Counted from the stretch's first letter, positions 8,337-44,473 are shown. The stretch: DNA of 64,000 nucleotides from an uncultured delta proteobacterium (GCA_963737265.1 CAVTRY010000012.1:256001-320000); one strand, 5' to 3'. Numbers and translations are program-made. The notes: a model not told the origin generated them from the sequence alone.

Positions 8337-8759
8337 GTGAGACTCCTGCTCGATGCCAACGTGCTCGTGTTCGCCCTGAATGACACTGGTGGTGTGCGTG
8401 GGCGATTGAACGACGCCCAGGCGTCCGGAGACTGGATTCTCACCAGCGCGGTAGTTGTGGGCGAGCTTGCCTTCGGCGCATCGGCTTCGGCCAGACCGGA
8501 ACAGAACCATACCCGCCTCCGCGCGATGCTGGCGAGAATGGAAGTGCTTCCGTTCACCGAAAGTGCCGCCCAGAAGTTTGGCGAAATCAAGGCAGCACTC
8601 CGCGCGCGTGGACTCGCCAAGAGCGACGCAGATCTGCAGATCGCTGCAAGGGCTATCGTTGAAGACGCCACGCTCGTCACCGATGACCGAGCGCTACTTG
8701 ACGAATCCATCGCGAATCTCAAGGCGGTGAACTGGGTGGTGCGAAGCCAGCGGACCTGA
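8337..8759 (+). CDS. vapC: VapC/PIN toxin
   Basis: LLDANVL...ELAFG...DLQIAA...TLVTDD. Confidence 0.92.
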   Translation: MRLLLDANVLVFALNDTGGVRGRLNDAQASGDWILTSAVVVGELAFGASASARPEQNHTRLRAMLARMEVLPFTESAAQKFGEIKAALRARGLAKSDADLQIAARAIVEDATLVTDDRALLDESIANLKAVNWVVRSQRT

Positions 8760-30572: not shown

Positions 30573-30729
30573 GGTGCGGGCACGTTACTGAAAATTCTCT
30601 TCGTTGTCTACGGACGGGAATTCCGTGAATTCCGTGCTTGACGTCCCCTTTTCCAGACGGACGGGAATTCCGCAAACGGTACCTTTTTCAGACTTGAATT
30701 AGGACTTGTTTGCGCCCATGATCCCGCGC

Positions 30730-31017
30730 ATGCGGGCCATCAAAGTTGCCGAAGACATCGTTCCGGTGGGCGAGTTCAAGGGACAGACAGCGCGTTGGCT
30801 CAGGCATGCCGCCGAAACGGGGCAACCCGTGGTGATCACCCAGAACGGCAAGCCGGCCGGCGTCCTGGTCTCGCCGACCGAGTACGACCGTCTGACGGAG
30901 CGGGAACGTTTCATCGAGTCGGTCGCGCTCGGTCTTGCCGATTCTGAAGCTGGTAAAACCATGGACACGAAGAAACTCCTGCGCCGACTTGAAGAGCGGC
31001 GGTCGCTCGGACGGTAG
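30730..31017 (+). CDS. Phd/YefM antitoxin
   Basis: PVGEFK...GQPVVITQNGKPAGVLVSPTEYD. Confidence 0.92.
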   Translation: MRAIKVAEDIVPVGEFKGQTARWLRHAAETGQPVVITQNGKPAGVLVSPTEYDRLTERERFIESVALGLADSEAGKTMDTKKLLRRLEERRSLGR

Positions 31018-31019
31018 CC

Positions 31020-31316
31020 TTGAAGGTCGTCTGGAGTGAGCAGGCGCTCGTGCGCTTAACCGAGATTCAGGACTTCGTCGCCCGCGCCAATCCCGAGGCG
31101 GCCGAGCGTCTCGTACACCGAATCGCCGACCGAGGCGAGGAGTTGTCCAAGTTTCCCGAAATGGGAAGAACGGTGTCCGAGCTTCCTGGAACGGGTCTGC
31201 GTGAAATCATTGAGGGACGTCACCGAATCGTCTACCGAATCCAGTCGAAGGACATCGAGGTTCTGACCGTCTTCGAAGGACACCGTCAGTTCCCGGCGGA
31301 GGATGTGGTTAAGTAA
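31020..31316 (+). CDS. RelE/ParE toxin
   Basis: MKVVWSEQA...FPEMGR...LREII...RIVYRI. Confidence 0.92.
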   Translation: MKVVWSEQALVRLTEIQDFVARANPEAAERLVHRIADRGEELSKFPEMGRTVSELPGTGLREIIEGRHRIVYRIQSKDIEVLTVFEGHRQFPAEDVVK

Positions 31317-31637
31317 CGATTTCGGACAATCGTGTGCTCGATCGCTGCGGGTTCCATCAGCGGATCTCGAGGAAAGTACCCTCGGACGGGATCTGCCGGG
31401 ATCTGCCGGGCAATGGGCAGAGCCGCTCGTGCGTCAGTTCCACTCCCTCGCTCGCCTCAGGTTCTGGCTGCGACTACTAATCTGCCCGTGCCCGGCATCA
31501 TCTGGGATCGCGGGGCATGGAAAGGGCAGCGGAAAGTTGCGCGAAAAGCGCCCTGGGCGGGATTTTGGGGAAGAGCGTTGCCCGGTGATCGGAATCTGTC
31601 CATAGTTACCAGACATACCGAACGGAGCACAGCGCGA

Positions 31638-31905
31638 ATGCGTCAATCGTGGACCTTCGCCACAAGACCGAGCAGATTATCGAGGCACTGGACCGGAGAG
31701 AGACCGTCTCGGTTCTCTATCGCGGCAAGGTGAAGGGCCGACTGGTGCCGGCGGTGTTGGCGGACCGCCCAAAGTGCAGAACAGCGCCTTCTTCGGCATG
31801 CGGGCGAAAGACCGCACGCCGGTGCCAAAGGTGATGCAGGCGCTCAGGGGCGGATGGTATCGCAATCTTTGATACGGACGTCCTTATCTACGCGCAACGT
31901 GGCGT
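31638..31905 (+). pseudogene. Decayed Phd-like antitoxin plus the first codons of a VapC
   Basis: DLRHKTEQIIEALDRRETVSVLYRGK, then IFDTDVLIYAQRG, truncated. Confidence 0.7.
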
Positions 31906-32047
31906 GCGCCGGGCAGCGCTCCACGCGACAGGAAGCGAACCGCCCGGGCTCGGACGCCTGCCTCACCGTGTCTTCATCGGATGCAACAGTTTCTCGGACA
32001 GGGGACGGGAAAGGTTGTTCGAGGGAGAGTACCCGTGGAGTGGGTTT

Positions 32048-32065
32048 CCATACCCTCCGGTATGG
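32048..32065. promoter_or_regulatory. Palindromic putative antitoxin operator
   Basis: CCATACC-ctcc-GGTATGG, about 26 bp upstream of the antitoxin start. Confidence 0.55.
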
Positions 32066-32091
32066 TAGTATGCGTACCTGATGAGGGCGCA

Positions 32092-32337
32092 ATGAAGACG
32101 ACCATCGAACTTTCGGATAACCTCTTTGCTCGCGCGAGAAAACTGGCTCGCGAGGAGCGCAAGACCTTGCGGGCCATCGTCGAGGAGGGAGTCTCACTCG
32201 CGCTCGATGCGCATGCCCGCCGTCGCTCACCCCGGATCAAACCGGTCGTGTTCGCCGGGAAGGGCTTGAGCGACGAGTTCCGCCATGCTCCTTGGCATCG
32301 CGTGCGAGATCTCATTCACGCTGGGCGGGGCGGATGA
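32092..32337 (+). CDS. VapB-type RHH antitoxin
   Basis: MKTTIELSDNLFARARKLA...TLRAIVEEG. Confidence 0.88.
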   Translation: MKTTIELSDNLFARARKLAREERKTLRAIVEEGVSLALDAHARRRSPRIKPVVFAGKGLSDEFRHAPWHRVRDLIHAGRGG

Positions 32338-32768
32338 TCGCGGTCGACACGAACATCCTGGTCTACGCGCATCGTGCCGACAGCGAATGGCACGAAGTCG
32401 CGCTCGAAAAAGTCCTGTCGCTTGCACGCGGCACATCCCGGTGGGCGATCCCGTGGCCCTGTGTCCACGAGTTCCTCGCAATTTGCACGCATCCCCGCAT
32501 TTACGTTCCGCCATCGCCGCTTGCCTTGGCCATGGATGCGCTTGCGGAATGGTTCAAGTCGCCTCGCTGCGATGTCGTCGGAGAAGGACCGGAATACTTT
32601 GGTCTACTCCGCGACCTCTGCGAGAAGGGCCGAGTATCCGGCGGCGCCATCCACGACGCCAGGATCGCCGCCATCTGCATGCATCATGGCGTTTCCGAAC
32701 TGTGGAGCGCCGATCGCGACTTCGGCCGTTTCTCGGGCCTAAAGGTGACAAACCCGCTTCTTGCCTGA
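32334..32768 (+). CDS. vapC: VapC/PIN toxin
   Basis: MIAVDTNILVYAH...HDARIAA...WSADRDF. Confidence 0.93.
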   Translation: MIAVDTNILVYAHRADSEWHEVALEKVLSLARGTSRWAIPWPCVHEFLAICTHPRIYVPPSPLALAMDALAEWFKSPRCDVVGEGPEYFGLLRDLCEKGRVSGGAIHDARIAAICMHHGVSELWSADRDFGRFSGLKVTNPLLA

Positions 32769-33064
32769 CTTGGTGGATCGCGCAGGACCCTTTCGACTGT
32801 CCGAAAAGCCCCGAACTTCACTTCGACATCAGCCCGCGCATCGCCGCCAAGAGCAAGTGGCCAAGAATCGAGGCCATCGGCCGCAGCAGGGCCTTCCTTG
32901 ACCAATACCGGTTGGCCATCAAGGCATGGATGGATGGCGTCGCCCACGTCGTCTTCCCCTACGGAACCTATTGGATGCGGAAGTTCGCGCGCGTCCTTTG
33001 CGAGGCGGCGGATGGGATGCAAGAGGCCTTTGCAACACCCGACGAAGCGTCAGCACCGGCGTAA
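32769..33064 (+). pseudogene. C-terminal remnant of a myxobacterial Y1/HUH (RAYT/IS200-like) transposase
   Basis: SPRIAAKSKWPRIEA...FLDQYR.A...W..G...VVFPYGTYWMR; recognised from memory of this family, not searched. Confidence 0.7.
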
Positions 33065-33226
33065 GGCCGGTCCGCAGGCATGGCCGTGACAGGAAAGTGT
33101 CGTTCGAGAAGACACATCCCAAGGCTATCCAAGGACGTTCGCAACCGAATCCGCAGGGCCATTGTTCCAAGCCCGCGCGTTCCAGGAAAGGCTGACCCCT
33201 GATGCGAGATGCTGGCGCCGAAGGTT

Positions 33227-33826
33227 CTATGATTCGTCGGCGGCATCCTCGGCAATCGTGACGGGTTCCAGCGCCGCCTCGCTCGACGGTGAGAGGAGCG
33301 GCCACGTCGCAGTGGGGTGGCTTGGCTTGGGCGAGTTGAGGCGGATTTGCTCGCCGTTCAACGCCACGTCGTCGTTTGCGCTGAGCTCGATGTTGCCGCG
33401 GCGAGCGCGGTGCTGCTGCGCATGGGCCTCGGACTGGATAGTTCCCCCGGCGCGGACTTCGATATTCCTGTCGACGACTTCGGTGAGATTCGCGCTGCGC
33501 AGGGTGATTTGTTCGCGGGCGTTCAATTCGAGCCGCTCACAATCGAGGCGCAGCTCGCCCGCGGCAGCGAGCCGCAGCGATTGTGCCTGCATTTCCACCA
33601 CCGGCCCATCCGCGCCAAGAGTCATGCGCAGACACATCTGCCCGTCCCGTCCCGTGACCGACAAAACATCCTCGCCGTTCACCTGGTTGCAAGCCAAGAC
33701 GTAGCCCGAACGCAGAAGAATGGACTCGTTGGTTCTTTGGGTGGCCGCAAGCTCGGCAGGCTGCGAGTCGTGCGACGGGCGATTCTGGTTGGGGGGCGCG
33801 GCTTGCGTTTTGGGCGTGTCATTCAT
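33227..33826 (-). CDS. Putative VgrG/gp5 C-terminal-like spike protein
   Basis: Repeated short beta-strand pattern ending GNIELSANDDVALNGEQIRLN; downstream of DUF2169 genes. Confidence 0.6.
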   Translation of the reverse strand: MNDTPKTQAAPPNQNRPSHDSQPAELAATQRTNESILLRSGYVLACNQVNGEDVLSVTGRDGQMCLRMTLGADGPVVEMQAQSLRLAAAGELRLDCERLELNAREQITLRSANLTEVVDRNIEVRAGGTIQSEAHAQQHRARRGNIELSANDDVALNGEQIRLNSPKPSHPTATWPLLSPSSEAALEPVTIAEDAADES

Positions 33827-33952
33827 GATGGAACCTTCGTGGCAAGTTGATGGAAGCTCAATCGTAGTCCCTCAGCGGCAGGGCGTCGGCGATACTCAAG
33901 GTGTTTGGACAAGGTTGGTCACAGTGAACCCTCTTGACACGGCCGGTCAAGA

Positions 33953-34645
33953 TCACTCGTGGTCCTTCAGCGGCAACGCGTCGACAATACCTGCGAGATC
34001 GTCGATAATCTTCCGCAGATCGACGGGATCGGTACGCAAGCAGAAGGAATATCCCTGGAATTTCACCTTGGGTCGATCTGCGTACTCAGCGGTGATGGCG
34101 ATGCGCCGCGGTTCTATGGCCACTTCTGTGATGCGCAAAGGCCGTCGCGCTGGATCGAGGAGTCCGAGAATACGGTTCTGTTCCGTCGGAATAAGGTCAA
34201 GCAACTGCACCTTCGCCTCCCGCAAATACTTCTCCTTCCAATACCCGAATAGATTGTCACCAGATCGTTGACGGAAAGTTGGTGGAATAGCCCACCCGTC
34301 ATCATGTCTGGGTGCAAGTGCAACGGAAATACAAGGTTCGCGATATGGATGATGGCCTGAGATGCCGTCGCCGCTGCCCTGGGTTTCGTAGGCAGGCTGG
34401 ATCTCGATTCCATAGCCAAGATATTTCCCGGTCAGGACTGGTACTAGTGGAATGTCGAGTCCCGACGGGAGGGGGGCATAGGTCAGATTCAAGTCTAGCG
34501 GCTGGGAAGCTTTCTCCAACAAGGAAACGGTGAAAGCCATTTCGGCAGCTGCACATTTTTTGTACCGAGCTTCGCTTGCAAACGTGTGTACAAGCAATCC
34601 CCCGAGCGCCACCACGGCTAGAAAGAGACCTAGGACTTCCAACAT
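33953..34645 (-). CDS. Hypothetical membrane-anchored protein (possible immunity)
   Basis: N-terminal hydrophobic helix; visibly AT-richer; inside the DUF2169 operon. Confidence 0.65.
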   Translation of the reverse strand: MLEVLGLFLAVVALGGLLVHTFASEARYKKCAAAEMAFTVSLLEKASQPLDLNLTYAPLPSGLDIPLVPVLTGKYLGYGIEIQPAYETQGSGDGISGHHPYREPCISVALAPRHDDGWAIPPTFRQRSGDNLFGYWKEKYLREAKVQLLDLIPTEQNRILGLLDPARRPLRITEVAIEPRRIAITAEYADRPKVKFQGYSFCLRTDPVDLRKIIDDLAGIVDALPLKDHE

Positions 34646-34660
34646 CTGAAGGTTGAACCC

Positions 34661-35866
34661 CTATGCGACTGGCTCCGCATCCAACGGTTGGAGCCTTTCT
34701 CGGTCGACAAAGACCTCCACGCTCTCCGAGACGGTCTTTAGCGGATCTTCCGATCTTTTCAGTGAATCTAGGAGTCCTTGGGGGAGCACCCAGGATGCGT
34801 GCCAAATTGCATAGACGCCCATCTCCAGAAGGCTGATAAGGATCCGATGGGTTGTAACTCTTGGCTCGCTGACTTTGCCAAGGTGTCGGACGAGCACGCG
34901 AGGTTGATCGGGTGGAACTTGGACCACCATTGAACCGTCGGGGGAGAGAGAGGTGAGTTCGATTGGGTCAATACGGTCAAGCTTGGGCAGAATTAGCGCC
35001 GGCGATGCTGCGTCAGCGCATCGCCAATCCAATGGGGTATCGAGCTTCGCACTCATGACCTTCCGAACGTGGCCCACATCCAAATAGCCACAGCGAACTT
35101 CGGGCACCAGGCGATCGTCAGCCGGCAAGCCGTCGGGAATAGCGCCGTAGTGAACCAAGCGCGGATACCAACCCTTGGAAAACCAGTTGCAGCTCCACGG
35201 CATGGGCTGGCGCCACCAGTGGAGGGGATCTACCGTCACGAGGCGCTGTGGCGTCAGTAGATCTGCGGGGTTCTCAATATTGGGCAAGACCAGACCGTCG
35301 AGACGCGCACTCTCAGATACGACATACCCCCTTCCGATGGGATTGCGTGGATAAACACCGGGGTCGAGGGACAACATCTGCTCAAGGTGAGTGACCTTTG
35401 GGAGCGGCACGGTATCGTCAAAGCCGCCGTAGGCATTTTCGTACCGCATTTCGATTGCATCGAAAGGTTCGGGAGGTGTGAATTACCAGGTTCCCTTGCC
35501 GTGGTACGCGACTCGTCGGTCGCCACTGATTCGATAGCAGACCTCGTGACCGCCAACCCGAATTTTCGCTGTCTCATGCCGAGCGCCACGACCCCATGCC
35601 TTTGCCATAACGATCAGATCGGTGCGTTGTTTGAGGGGAATGATGTCGGTTTCGTTGAAGTCCGCTTCGTCTTCCGCCATGTCATTGCCAGCGAGCAAGG
35701 GAATCTCCCCTTCAGCACGCGTGCAGCGCCCGTCGGGGCGGAGACGATAGACCCTCTTCACATGAACCGACAGACTCGGACGGCCCTGCTCGTCGGCAGC
35801 CAGCAAATAGGTCCTGCTGGGTGGAGGTCGGGTTGCTTGGGGGTCGGTATCAACCACTGACGTCAT
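34661..35866 (-). pseudogene. DUF2169-family protein with an in-frame TAA at 35483-35485
   Basis: The two ORFs are in the same frame: ...ISGDRRV...GTW*FTPPEPFDAIEMRYENAYGG...YPRNPIGRG...LPNIENP. Confidence 0.8.
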
Positions 35867-35869
35867 GTG

Positions 35870-36712
35870 CTACCACCATTTTGCGTCAAAGAATTTGTAG
35901 CTGTAGTCACCCCGGCCGACGCTCGGGGATCCGCGCGCAGCACCCGTGACTAGGGGTGACACAACCCAGCTCTTGAGAAGGTGATCAATCGCTTTGTTAC
36001 CCAGTTGCGGAAGCATGTACCTGGCGGCCAGTCGCGCACCCCCCTGCGCCATCACCGTGAAGATTCCCGCGTTGGGCTGCAGGGTGAATCCCAAGAGAAG
36101 AGTCCTCGCGCACCTATTCGCGATCGCGTTCTTTTCCGGAAAGAACTTGAAGAGCTTTTCGAAAAGAGGGTTCTTGCTGACGAATTTGCTCCAAAGTTTG
36201 TCGACCAGAATGTCCATGGCGATGTACAGAACGCCTTTTATCAAGTCGCCGACGGACGGACTTGTCCACACAGTGCATTTGAAAAGGAGAACGACACCCG
36301 TTGGAAGTGAGACAGGATTACAGCAAATTTCTCCAAACAGAAAAGCTAGGTAGGTTCCTACTGGACTTCCCTTGAGTTGAACGCTGGAGATCGGAAACAT
36401 GACTTTATGCTTGGAGAGCAGCGTGTTGACTGCGCACAAGGCGTTCATGGGAATGGCAAAATGCGGAATCATGTAGCCGACGTCATGGCCCTGCTTGACG
36501 CCGGGATTGCCGTCTACGAGTACGGTGAGGGCTTTCTTGTGTGACAGGGTTCCAGCGGGATTCCCCATCGGCATTGGCCCCTCAAGCAAGCCGGGAAGAG
36601 CAGTTGGAGACGGCGGAATCGGGGGGCATGCAGCGTTGTGCATGGTGAACGCCGAAATCACCCATTGCCCGTATCCAGCATTCAGTATTGGACAAGGAAT
36701 TCCTAAACCCAT
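35870..36712 (-). CDS. PAAR-like domain protein with a hydrophobic/basic C-terminal extension
   Basis: MH..CPP.PP...TVLVDGNPGVKQGHD...PH...SSVQLKGSPVG; sits between two DUF2169 genes. Confidence 0.55.
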   Translation of the reverse strand: MGLGIPCPILNAGYGQWVISAFTMHNAACPPIPPSPTALPGLLEGPMPMGNPAGTLSHKKALTVLVDGNPGVKQGHDVGYMIPHFAIPMNALCAVNTLLSKHKVMFPISSVQLKGSPVGTYLAFLFGEICCNPVSLPTGVVLLFKCTVWTSPSVGDLIKGVLYIAMDILVDKLWSKFVSKNPLFEKLFKFFPEKNAIANRCARTLLLGFTLQPNAGIFTVMAQGGARLAARYMLPQLGNKAIDHLLKSWVVSPLVTGAARGSPSVGRGDYSYKFFDAKWW

Positions 36713-36720
36713 GATGACTC

Positions 36721-37857
36721 CTAACCAGAGGCGAGCAGGGGAAGCGATTCGATGATTTGAGTTAGGGGATGCATTTCGCGCAGCATGTCCCAGGGGATCG
36801 GCATGTTCTCGGGAAGGTCGGGCGATTCGATGGAGATCGCCGTGGGCTTTGCCGCCAGTTCATTGGTGATAATCGTCGTGGACGAATCGAGCGGGGGTGT
36901 GTCGCTGACGAACAGGCGAACGTGGCGCAGGCGTTCGGGGATGAATTGGTACAGAAACGCGCGCCGGGCGACGACCCACAGGCGGCGTTGATCGGGCACC
37001 AGGCACAGGGTATCGGGAATCAATTGCAGCTGGTGTTTGCGCTGGCCCAGCATGATTTCGGCGGCGAGGTTCAGGCTGGGCAGGCGGCATTGCCAGGGCG
37101 AGCTGGACATGCCAGTAACGGACACCGGGGCGCCCGCTGGGAAGGCGGGCAGGTGCATGCGTGGGTGCGATGACACGAAAGCCAGCGGCGTGAAGGTGGT
37201 CTTTTGTCGTTCGAGATCGACGTTGATTCCTCGCGTGCCGCGCAGTGCGCTGGTTCTGGGCAAGGGCAACAGGCTGGCGGGCAGGGGCGTCTGGTCCCAG
37301 CTGGTCATCGGCTGGTCGACCTCTTCGAGGTTGGGAAGGCGAATGCCAGGCGCAAGCTTCGCGGAAAGGCACCATCCTCGGCCAAGGGGATTGTTGGGCT
37401 CGGTGGTTTCGATGCCGCTGGGGTGGATGGCCTTGCCCCCGAAGGCTCGGGAATAGTCGAGGGACATGGTTTGAAAGAGGGCGGTTCGCGAAACCGAGAC
37501 GCCGAAGGTCCTGGGCAGCCAAGCGCGATCTCCCGTCACCTGGAGCGTCCGCGCGAAGTTACCGATCTTGATGGTGACCAGCATTTTCTCGGCCAAGCCC
37601 TTGGGGCTAACGGCGGGCCCATAGACCGCGAAATCGCAGCCCTGTTTGATGGGCACCAAATCGTTTTCCAGGACGCCGAGGGGTGTTTCCACATCGCCCT
37701 CGTTGATGCCAAGTGGCTCGCCTGCCGGGGTCGCCGTCCCGTTTGCGTCAACCTGGTAGGACGCCTTGGCGACGAGCGTTGCGAGAACGAGATCTCGATA
37801 GTGAAGCTGGGCGCGAAGAATCTGCGCTGGAAAAGGGGTAGGCTCGATAAGCTGCAT
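36721..37857 (-). CDS. DUF2169-family T6SS/spike adaptor
   Basis: DLVPIKQGCD, LQVTGDRAW, LDYSRAFGG, NPLGRG, LPNLE and DTLCL motifs. Confidence 0.88.
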   Translation of the reverse strand: MQLIEPTPFPAQILRAQLHYRDLVLATLVAKASYQVDANGTATPAGEPLGINEGDVETPLGVLENDLVPIKQGCDFAVYGPAVSPKGLAEKMLVTIKIGNFARTLQVTGDRAWLPRTFGVSVSRTALFQTMSLDYSRAFGGKAIHPSGIETTEPNNPLGRGWCLSAKLAPGIRLPNLEEVDQPMTSWDQTPLPASLLPLPRTSALRGTRGINVDLERQKTTFTPLAFVSSHPRMHLPAFPAGAPVSVTGMSSSPWQCRLPSLNLAAEIMLGQRKHQLQLIPDTLCLVPDQRRLWVVARRAFLYQFIPERLRHVRLFVSDTPPLDSSTTIITNELAAKPTAISIESPDLPENMPIPWDMLREMHPLTQIIESLPLLASG

Positions 37858-37972
37858 AGGGAACGAAGTCTCGGTCGGTATTTAGGATGATGTCAACGAA
37901 AACGGTCAGGGAGAGGACACCGAACGGTCCGAACGGTTATCGGCCCTGCCAAAATCCTGGGATCCAGGCAAT

Positions 37973-38354
37973 ATGGCCACTCTGTGTCCCGCGGGCCCGA
38001 CATGTGGGCCCGTAAGTCGTCGCTTCATCGAAATCGGAATCAGCGGCCATCTTCCGAAGACGGGGACCACATGTCATCTTAGCGTCTGCGTGCCATTCGA
38101 CCCGCAAGTGGATCGCCTCCCGGTCGATTTCGAATTCGCCCCGGAGATGCTGACGGCGCGCGGAGGCCCATGGTTGCAAGAATATGTCTGCTCCGGCTAC
38201 TCCGAGGAGACAGTGCTGCCAAGGGCTCGCGGGGAAGGTAATCTCATATATCCCGTTTCGTCACTTGATGGTTCCCCTCCACGCTGGAAGGGCCGCGTTG
38301 TGCTAAAGAAGGTAGGTGGATTGGGCGAGCTGGTACTTGGAAACCTCGACTACA
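37973..38354 (+). other. Hypothetical ORF whose 3' end runs into a repeat element
   Basis: Protein-like composition; abuts the transposase 5' remnant at about 38355. Confidence 0.3.
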
Positions 38355-38457
38355 GGGTAATCATGCAGTCACGGCCGGGCACGACCTGGCGAGGGAGGGT
38401 CATGCATGGGTTCTCGGCAACGGCAGTTGCGAGGGAAGTACCCTCGGACGGGATTTC
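38355..38457 (-). mobile_element. 5'-end remnant of the HUH-transposase element
   Basis: Motif, conserved leader and MTLPRQVVPGRDCMIT. Confidence 0.75.
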
Positions 38458-38519
38458 CGATTGGAAGGGAAACACGATGTTCGCCAAACCAGCCACGTGA
38501 CCCAGGAAGGCATCCCGAC

Positions 38520-38779
38520 ACTTCTCGACGAAGCCTCGGTTGCCTACTTACCTCGATAAACGTCTTTCCGACGATGATCCTATAGCCACCGTGATCGTAC
38601 CTCCAGAAGTCGCCGAGTTTGGAACCCTTCAACGCCTCCCCAAGAGCGCGAGGATTTTCCAACGGCGCGATCCTTTCATCGAGATACTTCAAGATGCGCT
38701 TGGAAATCTGACGGTCGAAGGATTCGAGATTTCGCGCTGCCTCGGGAGAGTATCGTAAACGCTAGGGCGCCTTACTCAT
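38520..38779 (-). pseudogene. RelE toxin pseudogene
   Basis: MSKAP*RLRYSPEA...ENPRALGEALKGSKLGDFWRY; in-frame TAG and a damaged 3' end. Confidence 0.78.
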
Positions 38780-38992
38780 TTGCCGTCTTGAGGCCGTACC
38801 GCTTCATCATGTCTTCGTGTGAGATCGTGACGCCGCCAGCACGAATTTCAGCAAGACTCTTCTCGGCCAGGTAGATGTCTTCCATGTCGTCGATGCGCTC
38901 CTCGATGGCCTTGCGCGCGTAGAACGACTTCGTCCTCCCGGTGGATTCCGCCAGGGATGCGAGGCGCTTTTCTAGGTCTTGGGGAAGCCGTA
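38772..38992 (-). pseudogene. RelB-like RHH antitoxin with its start replaced by the repeat cluster
   Basis: VRLPQDLEKRLASLAESTGRTKSFYARKAI...EDIYLAE. Confidence 0.8.
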
Positions 38993-39250
38993 CATGTGCA
39001 TGAGTTCTCGGAAAACGGCAGGGGAAAGTTGCGCGAAAAAGCACCTTGGAAGGGACTTGGGGGAAGACTATCGGACGGAATTTCTGAGTTGCGCTAAAGA
39101 GTACCCTCGGAGGGGATTTCGGATTTCCGGAGGAAAAAGTACCCTCGGACGGGATTTTGGATTGAAGTACCCTCGGACGGGGATCTGCGAAGAAGTACCC
39201 TCGGACGGGGATCTAAATTCCGACGTACCCTGGATGGGAGTCGGGATTTT
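38993..39250 (+). repeat. Cluster of motif copies with the element leader
   Basis: Four exact copies plus several degenerate ones; near-duplicate of 40988-41230. Confidence 0.9.
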
Positions 39251-39270
39251 TGGATTTGCGAGCTCGGCGC

Positions 39271-39675
39271 TCAGTCTTTCCAGCTCTCGACAGTGAGACC
39301 GGTGATCGTGCCATCGAGCAAGGCGCCGTCGTTCGTCACCAGCGTGGCCCCCAGGTCAAGCGCAGTCGCCGCGATCAGCATGTCCAGGTCCGCTTTGTTG
39401 ATGCCCTTCGCGCGTAGCTCCGCCTTCAAGCGCCCAAAATGAGCCGCTCCCCCGAGGCTGAGCGGCACGATCTCCAGCGGCTCCAATTCCTTCTCCAGGT
39501 GGCGGCAGTTCGCTTCCTGTCGCGTGGAGCGCTGCACGCCGCAAAACAGCTCCGCCACCACGACGATGCTGGTCACCACTCGTCCAGTTCGCCCAGCTTC
39601 ATTGGCCCGGGCTCGGACGCCTGCCTCACCGTTCAGGATGTAGACCAGCGTGTTGGTGTCGAGTAGCCAAGTCAC
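39271..39675 (-). CDS. vapC: VapC/PIN toxin
   Basis: WLLDTNTL...DMLIAATAL...TLVTND; paralogue of 8337-8759. Confidence 0.93.
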   Translation of the reverse strand: MTWLLDTNTLVYILNGEAGVRARANEAGRTGRVVTSIVVVAELFCGVQRSTRQEANCRHLEKELEPLEIVPLSLGGAAHFGRLKAELRAKGINKADLDMLIAATALDLGATLVTNDGALLDGTITGLTVESWKD

Positions 39676-39968
39676 AGGATCTCAGGCGTCTCCGCGTTTC
39701 CACCAGCGTCCCGTCCCTCTCGCAGGATCCGGATGATCTCCTCGGTGGACTCCCCTTCCCACGGCCCCGCCGCTGCCATCCGATCTCCCAGGCCAGGCGC
39801 CGGCTCCTCGCCACGAGCGGTGACTACCCGCAACTCCACGTCGAGTTCGTCCAGGTGCGCACGCACCGGCTGCGACGGGTCGCGCCTCAGCTTTGCCAGT
39901 GCTTCCTCCAGCGCTTTCGGAATTTGTTTTTGCGGTGTCGACCGGATCCGTGGCGGCTGGATTTTCAT
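39672..39968 (-). CDS. Putative antitoxin
   Basis: Overlaps vapC; acidic C-terminus GPWEGESTEEIIRILREGR. Confidence 0.75.
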   Translation of the reverse strand: MKIQPPRIRSTPQKQIPKALEEALAKLRRDPSQPVRAHLDELDVELRVVTARGEEPAPGLGDRMAAAGPWEGESTEEIIRILREGRDAGGNAETPEIL

Positions 39969-39987
39969 TCCGTCAGCGCCTTTCCCA

Positions 39988-40497
39988 TCAAGCCGCGGCA
40001 TTCCAGTCCTCGCCCTGCAACGTCATCTTGATTCGGCTCGGCTTGGCGATCGAGCCGAGTCGCGCGAACAGGCCAATATCTGGCCGCGCATCCCAGTCGT
40101 GCAACAGGACCAACGTCCGCAACAGACGATCCGGAACTTGCCCGATCGGTTCACGCCCTGTCTCCCAGCGTGAAACCGACGTCTTGGTGACGCCCAAGTG
40201 TTGTGCCATTTCTTCGCCGGTGAAGTTGAGATGGTGGCGAAGAAATGCCACCTCCGACGCTGCCAGCCGGCCCGGCTTCTTCACAACCGCTGCTGCGACA
40301 GCTCGATGTAGACGTGCAGGGGCATGGATCGCGACGCTTTCCCCAGCGCAAAGCACGCACCTCAGGATCGTCGCGTTCTCCAGCGTCACCGACAACCCTC
40401 CCTCGAAGCGGTAGCGATAGGGACGTCGCTCGGTTTCGAGCATACCGCCGCAGTCAAGACACTTCCCCGCTCCAGGTTTCTTCCTATTGCTTCGCAT
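39988..40497 (-). CDS. MqsA-like zinc-finger/HTH antitoxin
   Basis: CLDC...CVLC; LRHHLNFTGEEMAQHLGVTKTSVSRWETG. Confidence 0.88.
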   Translation of the reverse strand: MRSNRKKPGAGKCLDCGGMLETERRPYRYRFEGGLSVTLENATILRCVLCAGESVAIHAPARLHRAVAAAVVKKPGRLAASEVAFLRHHLNFTGEEMAQHLGVTKTSVSRWETGREPIGQVPDRLLRTLVLLHDWDARPDIGLFARLGSIAKPSRIKMTLQGEDWNAAA

Positions 40498-40514
40498 GAT
40501 GCCTTTCCTCCCTT

Positions 40515-40853
40515 TCACCTGGCGCGCCACGCCGTCACGACCACCGTCCAGCTCTCGGTTCGCAAGCTGATCACCACGCACACCTTCGACCGACGAACCC
40601 GATATCTCCACGATCCCCGCTCCTGCTCCCCCGGCTCGACAACACCTCCGCGAAGAACGCCCACGACTTCATCCTCCGTGATGTCGTCATCTGCCATTTC
40701 CTTGCGGGCGTGTGGCGAGTATTCAATGGTTCCGTTCTCCAGCAGCGCCACCAGAAGCGATTTGACTCTACCGGGCTCCAGAGGCTCCTTTATCCATCGT
40801 GAGACTATGCCGTTGGTATACATAATGTCAACCCAATCGGCGATTTTGGCCAA
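40515..40853 (-). CDS. DUF4258-like toxin
   Basis: YSPHARKEMADDDITEDEV...WRYRV...VVVTAW; true start may lie downstream. Confidence 0.8.
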   Translation of the reverse strand: MAKIADWVDIMYTNGIVSRWIKEPLEPGRVKSLLVALLENGTIEYSPHARKEMADDDITEDEVVGVLRGGVVEPGEQERGSWRYRVRRSKVCVVISLRTESWTVVVTAWRAR

Positions 40854-40947
40854 CGGCCGTGGGCCGGGTTCGACCGTCTGACCGAGCGGAACGCTTCATC
40901 GTGTCGGTCGCGCTCGGTCTTGCCGATTCTGAAGCTGGTAAAACCGT

Positions 40948-41330
40948 CATGTAGTCAGGGCCGGGCACGACCCGGCGAGGGAGGGTCATGCATGGGTTCT
41001 CGGAAAACGGCAGGGGAAAGTTGCGCGAAAAAGTACCTTGGAAGGGACTTGGGGGGAAGACTATCGGACGGAATTTCTGAGTTGCGCGAAAGAGTACCCT
41101 CGGACGGGATTTCCGGGAGAAAAAGTACCCTCGGACGGGATTTTACGGGATTTTAAAGAGGGTATTTCCGGGGGAAAAAGTACCCTCGGACGGGATTTTG
41201 GATTGAAGTACCCTCGGACGGGGATCTGGGGATTTTAAGGATTTTGGATTGAAGTACCCTCGGACGGGGATCTGCGGACGGGGATCTGCGGACGGGGATC
41301 TAAGAAGTACCCTCGGACGGGGATCTGCCG
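40948..41330 (-). mobile_element. HUH-transposase 5' remnant plus an amplified motif cluster
   Basis: MTLPRRVVPGPDYM, the leader, six exact motif copies and a CGGACGGGGATCT(G) triplication. Confidence 0.8.
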
Positions 41331-41671
41331 GAATAGTCCTTGTGCCCCGAGGCTCAAACTATCGCGACCAGCTGGCGCAAACCCGTCTCGAAGCCGACGC
41401 CCGTCGGCTAACCAATCTCCGCGACCATTTCGAGCAGCAGATCCTTGCCCGTGTCGGGGACCAGGCTCACGCAGGCTCGAAAGCGCGTCGGCCCGACCAA
41501 GCAAGCGCTGGTGACCACCACGCGGGATGGACTGGCATGTCCTTGACATCTCCTTTTCCAGAGGACCGGTGTCTACCGAAATGACCCTCGGACCGGGGTC
41601 TCTGTCTCCGGACCGAGACCGACCGTCAGGATCTCCGAAGCGGGAATGTTTCATCTGCTGCAACCTGTGAA

Positions 41672-41685
41672 ACATGTTAACATGT
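41672..41685. promoter_or_regulatory. Perfect palindrome, putative antitoxin operator
   Basis: ACATGTTAACATGT, 4 bp before the ATG. Confidence 0.6.
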
Positions 41686-41689
41686 ACCC

Positions 41690-41953
41690 ATGACTCACAT
41701 GACAGTGCGTGACGTCCGACTCCACTGGCCCGCGGCCGAGAAAGCTCTGGCCAATGGTGAGGAGATCGTGGTTACCCGAGACGCGAAGCCAGTCGCACGT
41801 CTCCTACCCTTCGTTCCGTCTACGCCACGGGTTCGTTCTCCCTTCAATCCAGCGTTGCACTTCCGTCGACTCAAACGCTTCTGGACGAACCAGTCTACGC
41901 AACCGTCAACGGACGAATGGCTGGCGCGCGATCGCTCAGATGCCACCCAATGA
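41690..41953 (+). CDS. Phd-like antitoxin
   Basis: GEEIVVTRDAKPVARLLP. Confidence 0.85.
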   Translation: MTHMTVRDVRLHWPAAEKALANGEEIVVTRDAKPVARLLPFVPSTPRVRSPFNPALHFRRLKRFWTNQSTQPSTDEWLARDRSDATQ

Positions 41954-42384
41954 GCCTGTACCTCGACACCAGTTGTCTCCTCAAGCTCCTCTTTCCTGAA
42001 CCAGAGAGCCCGACCACTGCGCTACTAATCACCGCTGAGAGCCGTGTCGTGGTATCCACGCTCGCTCGCCTCGAAGCCATGGTTCAAATCCAGGGTCGCG
42101 TCGCAGGTGGACTATTCACGGCTCGATCCGCGTCCACGCTCACTCGCCTTCTCGACCAAACCCTCGCGGCCACTCCGTTCGATCTGGTTCCCACACCTCC
42201 CGGCGTTGACGGTGTTGCTGTTGGTCAGCTCTTTCCCCTCGGTCGTTCAGTTCACTGCCGAACCCTCGACCGGTTGCACCTGGCGGCCATGCAAGCCATT
42301 GGTTTGCGCCGCATTCTCACCAACGACGAGATCCAGGCCCGCGCTGCCGCCGCCCTCGGGTTCGATGTCCTCCGTCCACGATAG
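41950..42384 (+). CDS. vapC: VapC/PIN toxin
   Basis: LYLDTSCLLKL...RTLDRLHLAA...TND. Confidence 0.9.
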   Translation: MSLYLDTSCLLKLLFPEPESPTTALLITAESRVVVSTLARLEAMVQIQGRVAGGLFTARSASTLTRLLDQTLAATPFDLVPTPPGVDGVAVGQLFPLGRSVHCRTLDRLHLAAMQAIGLRRILTNDEIQARAAAALGFDVLRPR

Positions 42385-42469
42385 TCTCCCGATTGACAAC
42401 TCGGCATGTATGGGTTCTCGGAAACGGCGGCAGAAAGTTGCGCGCAAAAGTACCCTCGGACGGGATCTC

Positions 42470-42921
42470 GCGCGACCCTTGCTGGGAGCCTGCGACACGT
42501 CGATGTACGGGACGTGGGGCACACGAAAACGCTGCGACAGCTTCTCGCCGATTTCGGACTCGGAAAAACCCGCATCGGCCAGACGCGCGACGTAGCGGAC
42601 GGCGTAGAAGGAAGCCCGGCAGGCGCTGTCGCGTTTGACCGAGTGGAGCAGGCTGTGCCCCTTGCCACACGCCGAGGGCTCGCGGTTGACGACCTGGTCG
42701 AAGACCTTGTGCTTGAATGCGTCCAGCTTACCGAGGTCGATGCCGGCCGGCCAAGCATCGTCGTCGGCAGGGCCGGCTGGCCGCTGGTCGTCAGTCGGCT
42801 TGGCGAGCGCAGACGATGCGGTGTTTGCCGGTTGACTGGGAGGGGCTTTCTTCGTGCATGCGCTGGCCGCTGCGACGATCACGATGGGGAGCATACCTCG
42901 GAGCATGCGAGACAAGAGCAT
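42470..42921 (-). pseudogene. 5' half of a DsbA/thioredoxin-family lipoprotein, cut at the motif
   Basis: Lipobox ASAC; EPSACGKGHSL...C; ends IDVSQAPSKG just before the expected thioredoxin fold. Confidence 0.65.
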
Positions 42922-43185
42922 TGGGCGAAGAATAGTCCCTGTGCTCCGAGGCGCAAACTATCGCGACCAGCACCGTCGTGTGCCGACGAACCGTCCAAAA
43001 TCAGTGGTTGCTTGCCATCTTCCGCGGTAAAGGAAGACCTCGTTTCGGGCCCCGCACATGATCTGCTGGCGCGAACCCGTCTCGAAGCCGACGCCCGTCG
43101 GGTAACCGATCTCCGCGACCATTTCGAGCAGCAGATCCTTGCCCGTGTCGGGGCGTGCGCCTCAACGGAGGAAGTCATCGCCTGC

Positions 43186-43450
43186 GGCGGGTAATCATGT
43201 AGTCACGGCCGGGCACGACCTGGCGAGGGAGGGTCACGCATGGGTTCTCGGAAACGGCAGCAGAAAGTTGCGCGCAAAAATGACCCTCGGATGGGATCTG
43301 AAGCATCCTGGCGCAGGAAAAATCGCCGCTCGGAACAGCGGCGGGTAATCATGTAGTCACGACCGGGAACGACCTGGCGAGGAATGGTCACGCATGGGTT
43401 CTCGGAAACGGCAGCAGAGAGTTGGGCGAAAAGTACCCTCGGACGGGGTC
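43186..43450 (-). mobile_element. Two tandem 5'-end remnants of the HUH-transposase element
   Basis: VTLPRQVVPGRDYMITRR and VTIPRQVVPGRDYMITRRCSERRFFLR, each about 40 bp from a motif copy. Confidence 0.8.
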
Positions 43451-43619
43451 TTCGACGACGAAGCAATCGGCGATTGTGCGTTGGGGAAAATTGGGGTGAT
43501 GCTTTTTGTGCGCGATGGTGTCGATGAAAGTCAGCAAGGCGCGATTACCTTGATCGATGCCGTGGATCTCGCGACCGGGGAGCGCTCTCACCCCGATCTG
43601 CTCGAATTGCTGGCGCAAG

Positions 43620-44380
43620 GGCCCGGCCTACGACACATCTCGCCAGGCGCGTGGTTTCACCTTCATTCCGCTTTGGGGCTTCGCCGTCGTCCTGTGGTAC
43701 TACATGCGACGGGTCGACTGTTGCCGGTGTGGGGTGACCGTCGAGGTGGTGCCGTGTCCAACCGGCAAGGAGAGGTCGTGCACGGTCTACCAGCACTTCC
43801 TCGCTTTCTGGGCCAAGCGCCTGGCCTGGTCCGACATCGCGCGGCTGTTTCACACCGCGCCGTCGAGCATGTCGTGCCCTTGGGCCTTGGGCACCGCAAC
43901 CTCGACGGCATCAAGGCCATCGGCATCGACGAGATCGCCGTCTGGTCCGGCCACAGGTACCTTACCGTCGTCTACCAACTCGACGCTGGGGTCCACCGGT
44001 TGACTTGGGTGGGCTACGGCCGAACCAAGGGGAGCTGCTGCCGGGCTTTCTTCGTCTGGTTCGGACGAGCGCGCCGGGCTTTCTCGAGTTCGTCTCCTCG
44101 GACATGTGGCGCGCGTGCATCGGCGTTGCAGCGCCCCGCGTCTGCCTTCTCAGCTGCATCCTGCGGACCGTCCGTGCCTACCTCCACAAGGAGGCATTCG
44201 AAGCCTTCTGGCGCTATCGCTCCGCCGCCTGGGCCGGCTGGTTCCTCGATGCCTGGTGCAAACGCGTGATGCGTTCGCGCTTGGCCCCGCTCAAGGCCAT
44301 CGCCAAGCCCCTGCGCAATCACCGCGAGCTAATCCTCAACTGGTTCCTCGCCAAGAAGGAGATTTCCCAGGGCGTTGTGC
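43620..44380 (+). pseudogene. ISL3-family transposase, fragmented
   Basis: RRVDCCRCGV, AIGIDEIA...YLTVVY and RAYLHKEAF...RSRLAPLK...HRELILNWF spread across three frames. Confidence 0.88.
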
Positions 44381-44473
44381 AGACTGGTGAGGAGGCAAAA
44401 GAGGCACCCTCGGACGGAATTTTGGCTGACGGGGATTTGGATGCTCCGGACGGGATTTGCCGATACTTGTATC

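Follow-up and report, generated by a model that had tools for sequence, protein, structure and literature searches.

The window, by which we mean the whole 64-kb stretch of DNA analysed, contains between 30.6 and 44.5 kb a run of toxin-antitoxin (TA) modules interspersed with unit repeats and transposase gene fragments. The first-pass annotation had listed seven TA pairs or relics here, and Pfam matches bear out all but one of them. On the + strand, a Phd/YefM antitoxin (30706-31017; PF02604, E 1.2e-16) is paired with a ParE/RelE toxin (31020-31316; PF05016, E 2.5e-17); a relic at 31649-31990, in which an antitoxin-like ORF with no Pfam match accompanies a PIN fragment, was read by eye, its one supporting match being a 40-nt segment (31905-31944) that is 92.5% identical to 39543-39504 in a PIN gene; and a third pair (32095-32768) combines a small upstream ORF, again with no Pfam match, with a PIN toxin (32292-32768; PF01850, E 2.1e-9). 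On the - strand lie a relic at approximately 38369-39044, made up of a truncated ParE (38570-38692) and an RHH antitoxin (38772-39044) whose start has been replaced by the leader of a transposase stub, a PIN toxin (39271-39675; PF01850, E 3.5e-17) with an upstream ORF at 39672-40001 that has no Pfam match, and a pair consisting of an MqsA-like zinc-ribbon/HTH protein and a DUF4258 protein (39988-40853). The seventh module, on the + strand at 41690-42384, joins a weak Phd-like ORF to a PIN toxin (41917-42384).

Other genes share this space. An unrelated block on the - strand (33227-37857) comprises a weak DUF2345-like ORF, two unknown ORFs, a split DUF2169 gene (34661-35866) and a second DUF2169 gene (36721-37857). 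Further along are a Phd antitoxin gene fragment (40864-40945, +) that is 92.8% identical to 30878-30960 and is fused to the next stub; an 'X' repeat at 41331-41459, with neither an assigned strand nor a Pfam match, which recurs at 42930-43153 (93-97% identity); an N-terminal ORF fragment (42476-42921, -; no Pfam match) with paralogues at C22:129835 (84.6%) and C11:134258 (77%); and a relic of an ISL3-family transposase, spread over several frames of the + strand (43557-44604; PF14690, PF01610).

Among these genes are the remains of a transposable element: in addition to two arrays and two C-terminal fragments, the window holds eight leader-bearing stubs that retain 0-88 nt of the coding region, and no intact transposase gene. 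All eight stubs, identified with a profile of unit, leader and 5' coding sequence, lie on the - strand. The left edge (30605-30680, +) is marked by two half-units CGGACGGGAATTCCG at 30611 and 30658, and a solo unit at 31367-31401 (+), with an exact 16-mer at 31376, is followed by a 10-nt microrepeat (x2.4). Stubs made up of a degenerate unit and leader are found at 31519-31567 (profile E 1.8e-4; 83.6% identity to 39013-39067) and 31988-32051 (E 1.1e-3). At 38355-38462, an exact unit (38438-38453) is linked to the leader and the first ~49 nt of the gene (E 2e-30), and a RAYT-like C-terminal fragment (38458-38571, -; residues 248-285) is joined directly to the same unit at 38453. A leader stub ending at the ATG (38997-39063) is followed by an array of four units (39101, 39139, 39167 and 39195) and a degenerate fifth, the whole covering 38997-39240, while the feature at 40946-41329 pairs a stub with leader and the first ~44 nt of the gene (40946-41053) with a six-unit array (41094-41322) that includes three perfect 14-nt half-units. 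Another stub, whose leader runs up to the start codon and which bears an exact unit (42450-42465), lies at 42405-42470 (E 4e-17), and two stubs joined directly in tandem carry unit, leader and either 88 nt (43304-43456) or 56 nt (43182-43299) of coding sequence (E 1e-43 and 3e-35 for the pair). The right edge (44401-44455, +) holds a degenerate unit (44404, two mismatches) and a half-unit (44447). The join on the - strand between the motif and the peptide (M/V)T(L/I)PR(Q/R)VVPG.D(Y/C)M, which had been noticed at first reading, was recovered at 38403, 40989, 43237 and 43391, and the C-terminal fragment that had been placed near 32769-33064 was found at 32780-33043. This diverged RAYT-like fragment (residues 223-310, 50% identity) is on the + strand, opposite to the stubs, and shares 78.7% nucleotide identity with a copy on C16. 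Three of the stubs break within 12 nt of one another (gene nt 45, 51 and 57).

The 16-mer GTACCCTCGGACGGGA occurs in seven exact copies in the window; the 14 exact copies originally reported are reached only when one mismatch is allowed, and 16 copies are found with up to three. All 16 are on the + strand, as had been claimed, and span 31376-44419, whereas shuffled sequence gives a mean of 0.77 copies and a maximum of 4. The half-unit CGGACGGGR, with 22 matches in the window against 3.4 expected and 18 of them inside 30611-44455, adds copies at 30611, 30658, 41275, 41289 and 44447, all on the + strand. The description of the motif as confined to 14 kb holds within the window but not across the genome, where 82 copies with up to two mismatches form approximately nine clusters. 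Similarly, the core TACCCTCGG has 165 matches genome-wide, and with 119 of these in 11 clusters it lacks the genome-wide dispersal of abundant intergenic repeats; the 46 singletons are comparable in number to matches of control 9-mers (31-99).

Each unit consists of an invariant core, GTACCCTCGGA, and a locus-specific tail, with the tetranucleotide GTAC conserved at the 5' end. Units are 16-25 nt long and non-palindromic, and they form direct repeats at irregular spacings of 25-58 nt. Perfect tandem repetition, as expected if arrays grow by duplication, is seen at 41261-41301 (14-nt unit x2.9, 100% identity) and on C14 (102-bp unit x2, 100% identity). No hairpin was found when eight single units were folded (MFE -1 to -4.9 kcal/mol, z -0.8 to +1.6 relative to shuffles), and RAYT-type recognition of a single-strand hairpin is therefore not evident here; folding of the leader region is also weak (z -1.5).

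The stub gene has 16 matches in the genome, three of them intact 316-aa copies and hence at least 13 of them fragments. At first reading, the stub peptide had been matched to the N-terminal end of myxobacterial Y1/IS200-like HUH transposases, and the full-length proteins agree with that identification, carrying both the HUH motif and the tyrosine. Residues S58, N59, H60, H62, Y120 and N124 are invariant in 17/17 aligned homologues; H60-x-H62, together with a single tyrosine (Y120) and the polar N124 four positions on, is the arrangement of a RAYT Y1 enzyme, and alignment to ISDra2 TnpA puts the HUH motif in the correct place. The NCBIfam model NF047646 (REP_Tyr_transpos) matches over profile positions 4-144 of 146 with an E of 8e-8, scoring 32.3 bits where the cut-off is 80, and no Pfam family, Y1_Tnp (PF01797) included, matches the transposase at E <= 1. 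An AF2 model (pLDDT 80) was compared with known structures using Foldseek, which ranked E. coli TnpA-REP (4er8_A) first (E 2.8e-6, TM (target) 0.75, over only the N-terminal ~140 residues), followed at ranks 2-23 by IS608, ISDra2 and IS200 transposases. The C-terminal region of ~170 aa is conserved in 17/17 homologues, with K248, W249, E253, R257, F281, P282 and G284 invariant, and a search for its relatives found none. From its sequence and modelled fold, the protein is predicted to be a RAYT-like Y1 HUH transposase of Myxococcota, ~300-316 aa long and encoded in multiple copies.

In intact copies, 2-16 direct units are followed by the ~40-nt conserved leader and then by the ATG (on the sense strand of the gene, the upstream units read ...TCCGAGGGTAC), and a second array in inverted orientation begins ~185 nt past the stop codon, so that the gene is flanked by its own inverted repeats. 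Within the P0001-like subfamily, direct 8-mers (2-16) lie upstream in 16/16 gene copies and inverted ones in 0/16, while exact inverted 8-mers lie downstream in 7/16 and variant cores take that position in others; more distant subfamilies have different cores and the same inverted layout. The gene is present in 25/41 related genomes, often with many fragments, and in genomes other than this one the 1.2-1.27 kb blocks that contain it share 84-97% identity within a given genome. On C13 and C23, two inverted arrays form composites that lack the gene, and where a truncated gene is followed by an array, the junction coincides with the beginning of a unit in 5/5 cases. These sequence relationships point to the 16-mer as the putative recognition or end repeat of this myxobacterial family of RAYT-like Y1 HUH transposases.

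REP sequences are 20-50-nt palindromes, or hairpins, that follow a conserved tetranucleotide, and the units described here differ from them in lacking hairpin folding though GTAC is kept. As in the REPtrons of E. coli (TnpA-REP, 4er8) and Marinomonas (REPtron Mb), a Y1 HUH enzyme, with 4er8 as its top structural match, is encoded by a gene that has short, inverted repeats on either side, the units begin with a conserved tetranucleotide (GTAC here, GTAG there), and composites of inverted units exist without the gene. Unlike in REPtrons, the units stand in direct tandem arrays and do not alternate, ~120 of them are gathered in 11 clusters where a REPtron has hundreds dispersed, and the protein has double the length, conserves a C-terminal domain and shows an NCBIfam score under the cut-off and no Pfam Y1_Tnp match. 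In the account of the Marinomonas REPtron given in PMC8266576, repeats are small and concentrated close to the gene, a feature shared by the element described here. RAYTs are characterised in PMC5581495 as usually single-copy; the present gene, by contrast, is multi-copy, in near-identical 1.2-kb blocks with many fragments, and neither this genome nor the others show the pattern of a single-copy, vertically inherited gene. The Y1 HUH fold, the compact multi-copy unit of ~1.2 kb with conserved non-coding ends and the way all copies in a nest face in one direction are all features of IS200/IS605 elements (IS608, ISDra2, IS200), from which the element differs in a transposase of twice the length and, apparently, in flanking inverted arrays of short repeats in place of one subterminal same-strand hairpin per end. 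Insertion of IS200/IS605 elements takes place 3' to a constant four- or five-base site and creates no duplication; the outer ends of the present element are variable arrays, and no target tetranucleotide or empty site was found.

Chromosomal integrons and integrase-less attC clusters hold small modules, among them numerous TA pairs, between repeats of one orientation, and the region had initially been interpreted as an integron-like gene-accretion platform, in which the units would be recombination sites for the insertion and excision of modules, mainly TA pairs, by an HUH enzyme working in trans. The region does resemble an integron in its run of small, often TA-encoding modules separated by a one-orientation repeat: most module borders in the window bear units or stubs, and the ORF fragment at 42476-42921 is cut ~10 nt from a unit (42466-42476). 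Genome-wide, moreover, nine TA matches lie near motif clusters against 0.97 expected, and both edges of the C11 nest carry TA genes (VapC, HicA/HicB and a HicB-like ORF). At the edge of that nest, the 3' end of the window relB (93%) is joined to the 3' end of the window VapC (97%) in a patchwork at C11:696066-696192; pieces of TA modules have therefore been moved or copied between the two nests. However, seven of the nine matches come from the present locus, within ~18 kb, and without it the excess is not significant (2 versus 0.75 expected, p 0.17). In many other genomes, ordinary copies of the transposase gene carry the same unit arrays without TA genes close by: 53 loci around the gene (641 kb) yielded 2 PIN, 0 ParE and 0 Phd genes, and ten nests (171 kb) yielded 2 PIN. 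Nor are the orthologues that two of the window TA modules have in relatives bounded by the motif, the core 8-mer being present at 0/5 ParE loci and an array at 0/9 VapC loci, three of which have one isolated 8-mer each. Within the window, TA genes also occur beyond the motif-bearing stretch (PIN at 8346 and 49247, ParE at 2913). The modules are not co-oriented as cassettes are (+ + + - - - +), the 16-25-nt non-palindromic units are unlike the imperfect palindrome of attC, stubs of the element's own transposase gene are attached to the repeat, and many junctions cut both partners arbitrarily, away from the motif (gene nt 45, 51 and 57; mid-antitoxin). None of the 22 genome matches to the tyrosine recombinase profile PF00589 is on contig C12, to which the window belongs. 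Taken together, the TA association is local, not general, the TA genes are probably bystanders and not captured cassettes, and we regard an accretion platform as very unlikely.

It is also unlikely, if somewhat less so, that the arrays are double-stranded, iteron-like sites bound by the C-terminal domain of the protein for expression control or end recognition, with the stubs as by-products of recombination between arrays. Such sites would fit units that are direct, irregularly spaced and non-folding, arrays immediately upstream of the gene and a C-terminal region that is kept in every homologue without a known relative, but a promoter element is a poorer fit than transposon ends for the inverted array past the gene and for the inverted composites that lack a gene, and the closest structural relative, 4er8, binds single-stranded REP DNA. 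That the mosaic results from repeats collapsed or misjoined in a metagenome-assembled contig is hardly credible: the genome comprises 25 contigs with 7.6% estimated contamination, the region is repeat-rich and the public contigs of the single run that holds it are too short to span it, yet G+C content across it is unremarkable, short contigs match it at >=99% identity (36/41 pieces), and the architecture of arrays, stubs and nests recurs at four further loci in the same genome and across numerous independent assemblies.

We therefore favor, as the probable explanation, that the 30.6-44.5 kb region is a decayed nest of a RAYT-like element among TA genes and not a new integron-like capture machine. 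In such a nest, the enzyme would act on single-stranded units, with GTAC possibly in the role that GTAG has in E. coli REPs; local tandem duplication may enlarge the arrays, new or partial copies may insert at or inside resident copies, and later deletions would leave the stubs. What surrounds the element, TA pairs as well as DUF2169 block, ISL3 relic and gene fragments, would then be neighbours in a dispensable, TA-rich island, disrupted by these events and not captured as cassettes. The layout of the element itself is the known RAYT/REP ('REPtron') arrangement, but with a gene that is multi-copy and IS-like.

The 16-mer GTACCCTCGGACGGGA (the unit) occurs in the window as 7 exact copies, 14 copies with no more than one mismatch and 16 with no more than three, against a chance level of 0.77 matches (mean of dinucleotide-preserving shuffles). 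The 14 copies that the first-pass annotation called exact are therefore reached only when one mismatch is allowed. Its observation of a repeated motif restricted to one strand stands with these corrected counts, as all 16 copies (≤3 mismatches) lie on the + strand, from 31376 to 44419. The half-unit CGGACGGGR was found 22 times in the window versus 3.4 expected; further copies at 30611, 30658, 41275, 41289 and 44447 include those that mark both edges of the region. True arrays of units are found at two positions, 39101-39210 and 41094-41322. Read on the - strand, the unit is joined to a conserved leader and, beyond it, to an ORF start, (M/V)T(L/I)PRQVVPG.DYM..., the same junction of motif, leader and peptide that had been noted from the sequence; a nucleotide profile covering the unit, the leader and the first 100 coding bases recovered eight such copies, all on the - strand and each retaining 0-88 nt of coding sequence. 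Along with these eight stubs and two arrays, the window holds two C-terminal fragments, one from a diverged copy (32780-33043, + strand) and one at 38458-38571 (- strand), and no intact gene copy is left in the region.

The source genome (6.55 Mb, 25 contigs), in which the window occupies C12:256001-320000, contains 16 matches to the gene, and the full-length form anticipated in the first pass, with an HUH motif and a catalytic tyrosine, is present as three intact 316-aa copies (contig C14 at 307715 and contig C11 at 684840 and 693766). The gene product has no Pfam match, while the NCBIfam profile REP_Tyr_transpos aligns over nearly its entire length with residues 5-138 at 32 bits, below its cut-off of 80. 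Across 17 aligned homologues, with identities down to 36%, residues S58, N59, H60, H62, Y120 and N124 are invariant, and the C-terminal half has a set of invariant residues as well. The best PDB match of an AlphaFold model (pLDDT 80) was 4er8, in which the REP-associated tyrosine transposase of E. coli binds a REP hairpin (E 2.8e-6), with the transposases of IS608, ISDra2 and IS200 ranking after it. The invariant H60, H62 and Y120 and this structural match confirm the identity given in the first pass, a myxobacterial Y1/HUH transposase. For the C-terminal ~170 residues, PDB searches by sequence and structure comparison returned nothing known, and the matches to this domain in the Atlas were Myxococcota hypothetical proteins only.

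A single search returned more than 2,000 proteins of this family, some of them titled 'REP element-mobilizing transposase RayT' by JGI, and clustering at 50% identity (E <= 1e-30) gave 1,506 clusters, nearly all of proteins about 300 aa long. Named records come from Myxococcota metagenome-assembled genomes (Polyangia, Nannocystales, Kofleriaceae and Enhygromyxa) and from one of Planctomycetota. The transposase family is large, lacks a Pfam family and has so far been found mainly in Myxococcota metagenome genomes. A non-exhaustive literature search found no description of the family, its arrays or a link between RAYTs and TA modules.

Every intact gene is preceded by a direct array of units, reading ...TCCGAGGGTAC on the sense strand, then by the leader and the ATG. 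In the close subfamily, the 1 kb upstream of all 16 copies contains between 2 and 16 direct TCCGAGGGTAC-type 8-mers and no inverted one; the exact inverted 8-mer lies 3' of the gene in 7 of the 16, and variant inverted cores, such as CGACCCTCGGACCGGAAC, lie downstream of other copies. More distant subfamilies use different cores in an identical geometry, with inverted arrays around the gene: CCGAGGTTGATT upstream and AATCAACCTCGGTGC downstream, CACCCGGGTTGATG and CATCAACCCGGGTCGG, or ACCCAGGGTTGTT and AACAACCCTGGGT. This layout, in which inverted repeats with a conserved 5' tetranucleotide enclose the gene, is known as the RAYT/REP or 'REPtron' arrangement, as set out in passages of PMC8266576. 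Two gene-less composites, C13:239510-240860 and C23:211927-213250 (loci L005/L008; the latter tandemly duplicated), consist of a ...CCGAGGGTAG unit array, a spacer of ~65 nt holding the near-perfect palindrome ACGTCCGGAAT(C/T)CGGACGT, and an inverted array of GTACCCTCGGA units. These composites resemble BIMEs/REPINs and look like non-autonomous derivatives of the element.

The accepted view of a RAYT is that of a domesticated transposase, present in one copy, which tends a set of dispersed REP hairpins. Within this layout the Myxococcota element differs in four respects: IS-like behavior, an extra conserved domain, short non-palindromic tandem units and nests of broken copies. Whereas RAYTs are typically single-copy, according to passages of PMC5581495, this gene is multi-copy and IS-like: matches occur in 25 of 41 related genomes, many of which carry several, fragments are plentiful, and blocks of 1.21-1.27 kb, from ~120 nt before the ATG to ~200 nt past the stop, share 84-97% identity within single genomes. 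Unlike classical REPs, the units are non-palindromic; the folding energies of eight single units (-1 to -4.9 kcal/mol) do not stand out from those of shuffled sequences, and unit hairpins are not supported. They are also clustered rather than dispersed. The 9-mer core has 165 matches genome-wide, of which 119 fall within 11 clusters and 46 are singletons, about the level of control 9-mers. The tail variant differs from cluster to cluster, and within a cluster all units face the same way with respect to the gene. One control 9-mer, TACCGTCGG, had 22 of its 99 whole-genome matches in clusters, with no clustering among the other controls; a second, similar family of repeats may exist, with this 9-mer as its core. 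A potential stem, CGCCGC...GCGGCG, at codons 17-23 near the stub breaks showed no covariation at synonymous sites (42 homologues, by eye) and was rejected as a by-product of Arg codons. The units measure 16-25 nt with 9-40 nt between them; a CRISPR-like reading was briefly weighed and rejected, given that the spacers are mostly half-units and microrepeats and that a transposase gene is attached. Arrays enlarge through tandem duplication, as seen in a perfect 102-bp duplication in the C14 array and a perfect 14-nt x2.9 repeat at window 41261-41301.

The junctions within the nests fall into two types. In five of five cases of a truncated gene with an array behind it, the two meet at a unit start (on C11 at gene nt 537 and 207, on contig C18 at nt 90, and in the window at nt 88, position 43304, and at residue ~285, position 38458), and the gene-side break points share no common sequence, indicating that these events are anchored at the unit. 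They may have been insertions of an end of the element, partial copying primed at a unit, or deletions next to an end. The remaining junctions are plain illegitimate joins in which both partners are cut: gene nt 45 runs into the interior of a Phd antitoxin gene duplicate (40864-40945; 92.8% identity with 30878-30960), nt 51 meets an unassigned ORF and nt 57 meets an 'X' repeat, so that three stub break points are bunched at gene nt 45-57. A leader stub also replaces the start of an RHH antitoxin gene at 39000, another ends exactly at its ATG and adjoins the stop of a PIN gene at 42405, and ~10 nt from a unit at 42466 lies the cut end of an ORF whose paralogues elsewhere are full-length. Units bound the ISL3 relic of the window, and a transposase-bearing insert on contig C16 duplicates a unit region. 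We conclude that an IS-like variant of the RAYT/REPtron type has left a decayed nest in this part of the window, within a TA-rich, rearrangement-prone island.

Several other sequences accompany these nests. The 'X' repeat (41331-41459 and 42930-43153) is 93-97% identical between copies, has a 93-nt insert in the second and contains ORFs with no Pfam match. An insert of ~2.5 kb with two ORFs that by eye resemble IS21 istA/istB (C11:682060-684590, locus L002) splits the array 5' of an intact gene, and sequence related to its end follows an N-terminal stub on C16. Just 3' of the intact C14 element (L001:10930-11300; C14:308930-309300) lies a stop-interrupted ORF start resembling, by eye, the N-terminus of a group II intron reverse transcriptase. 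The block at 33227-37857 (-) comprises a weak DUF2345-like ORF, two ORFs with no Pfam match, a split DUF2169 and an intact DUF2169; it is flanked by motif copies and bears no sign of a link to them. Such domains accompany type VI secretion spike/effector loci. A large Cys-rich, secreted-looking protein of 949 aa is encoded at 44474-47323 (-), with paralogues including C12:333592 (on the window's own contig), C14:11479 and L003:284-2290, and one paralogue sits within the C11 nest between element copies.

One public sequencing run contained 41% of sampled words, as short low-depth contigs only, and its contigs do not span 30000-45500. The single 'joint' among them, 38865->42368, was rejected as a deletion variant because it corresponds to a paralogous patchwork at C11:696066-696192. 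Among 12 same-genus genomes, the left flank gene (a TonB-type receptor) had no match at E <= 1e-50 and the right flank gene had partial, paralogue-like matches only.

The TA modules between the units had been read as the cargo of an integron-like gene-accretion platform driven by the HUH transposase. Six of the seven TA pairs or relics then listed are backed by Pfam; the seventh (31649-31990) was called by eye, with one 40-nt PIN match. With local profiles built on the PIN, ParE and Phd genes that Pfam defines in this genome, we found nine TA matches within 2 kb of motif clusters versus 0.97 expected. Seven of the nine belong to the window locus, and elsewhere in the genome two matches versus 0.75 expected (p 0.17) do not establish TA enrichment as a general feature of motif copies, although the true figure there is somewhat higher, as the profiles omit HicAB, which together with a VapC brackets the C11 nest. 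In other genomes, the surroundings of 53 gene copies (641 kb) held two PIN, no ParE and no Phd matches, and ten fragment nests (171 kb) held two PIN matches. TA genes are also present in the window beyond its motif-bearing part, and its TA modules are not co-oriented. The core 8-mer is absent around orthologues of the window's ParE module at five loci, and the array is absent at nine loci with orthologues of the VapC at 39271, three of which have one isolated 8-mer. The units are not attC-like, contig C12 encodes no tyrosine recombinase, and an Rfam search at gathering thresholds and a tRNA scan gave no hits in the window, hence neither a tRNA-linked island border nor a known RNA. With a local TA excess, module orthologues lacking the array and no recombinase on the contig, a gene-accretion platform is not supported. 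In favor of some traffic of gene pieces, the C11 patchwork joins 34 nt of the window VapC 3' end (42368-42401, 97%), 2 nt and 91 nt of the relB 3' end (38775-38865, 93%), and overlaps the end of a HicB gene.

The enzyme family, the inverted-array layout, the multi-copy state, array duplication and the unit-anchored junctions, all directly observed, can be joined into a mechanism with steps taken from TnpA-REP and IS200/IS605 chemistry, in part as covered by passages of PMC8266576 and otherwise as generally known. The enzyme would act on single-stranded DNA at or near units, with GTAC presumably standing where the GTAG guide does; either the gene together with its arrays or just units would be mobilized, and insertion beside or into resident copies would produce same-orientation nests. 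Strand-specific orientation is known for the replication-coupled transposition of IS608 and ISDra2; on the gene strand, the GC skew of this region has no uniform sign (-0.026 to +0.024). Alternatively or additionally, the arrays may be duplex binding sites for the C-terminal domain. A further reading, which we consider improbable, is that the clade is an active, self-targeting single-strand transposon with unit arrays as both ends and landing sites, and that unit-anchored partial copying and deletion then build growing mosaics which break and duplicate parts of adjacent genes, among them TA modules, and carry them from nest to nest. One trace of such self-targeting shuffling would be the relB/VapC patchwork that the nests on C12 and C11 have in common.

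For annotation, arrays and stubs flag rearrangement-prone islands and are not to be confused with cassette arrays or CRISPR-like repeats, and the invariant 11-nt core offers a simple substrate for biochemistry. Were the self-targeting reading true, the nests would be HUH-driven gene-shuffling loci, weaker than an integron yet a real route of gene-fragment traffic. Because IS-like behavior, an extra domain, tandem units and nests occur within a RAYT layout, this family could stand between IS200-type elements and domesticated REP systems as an intermediate form.
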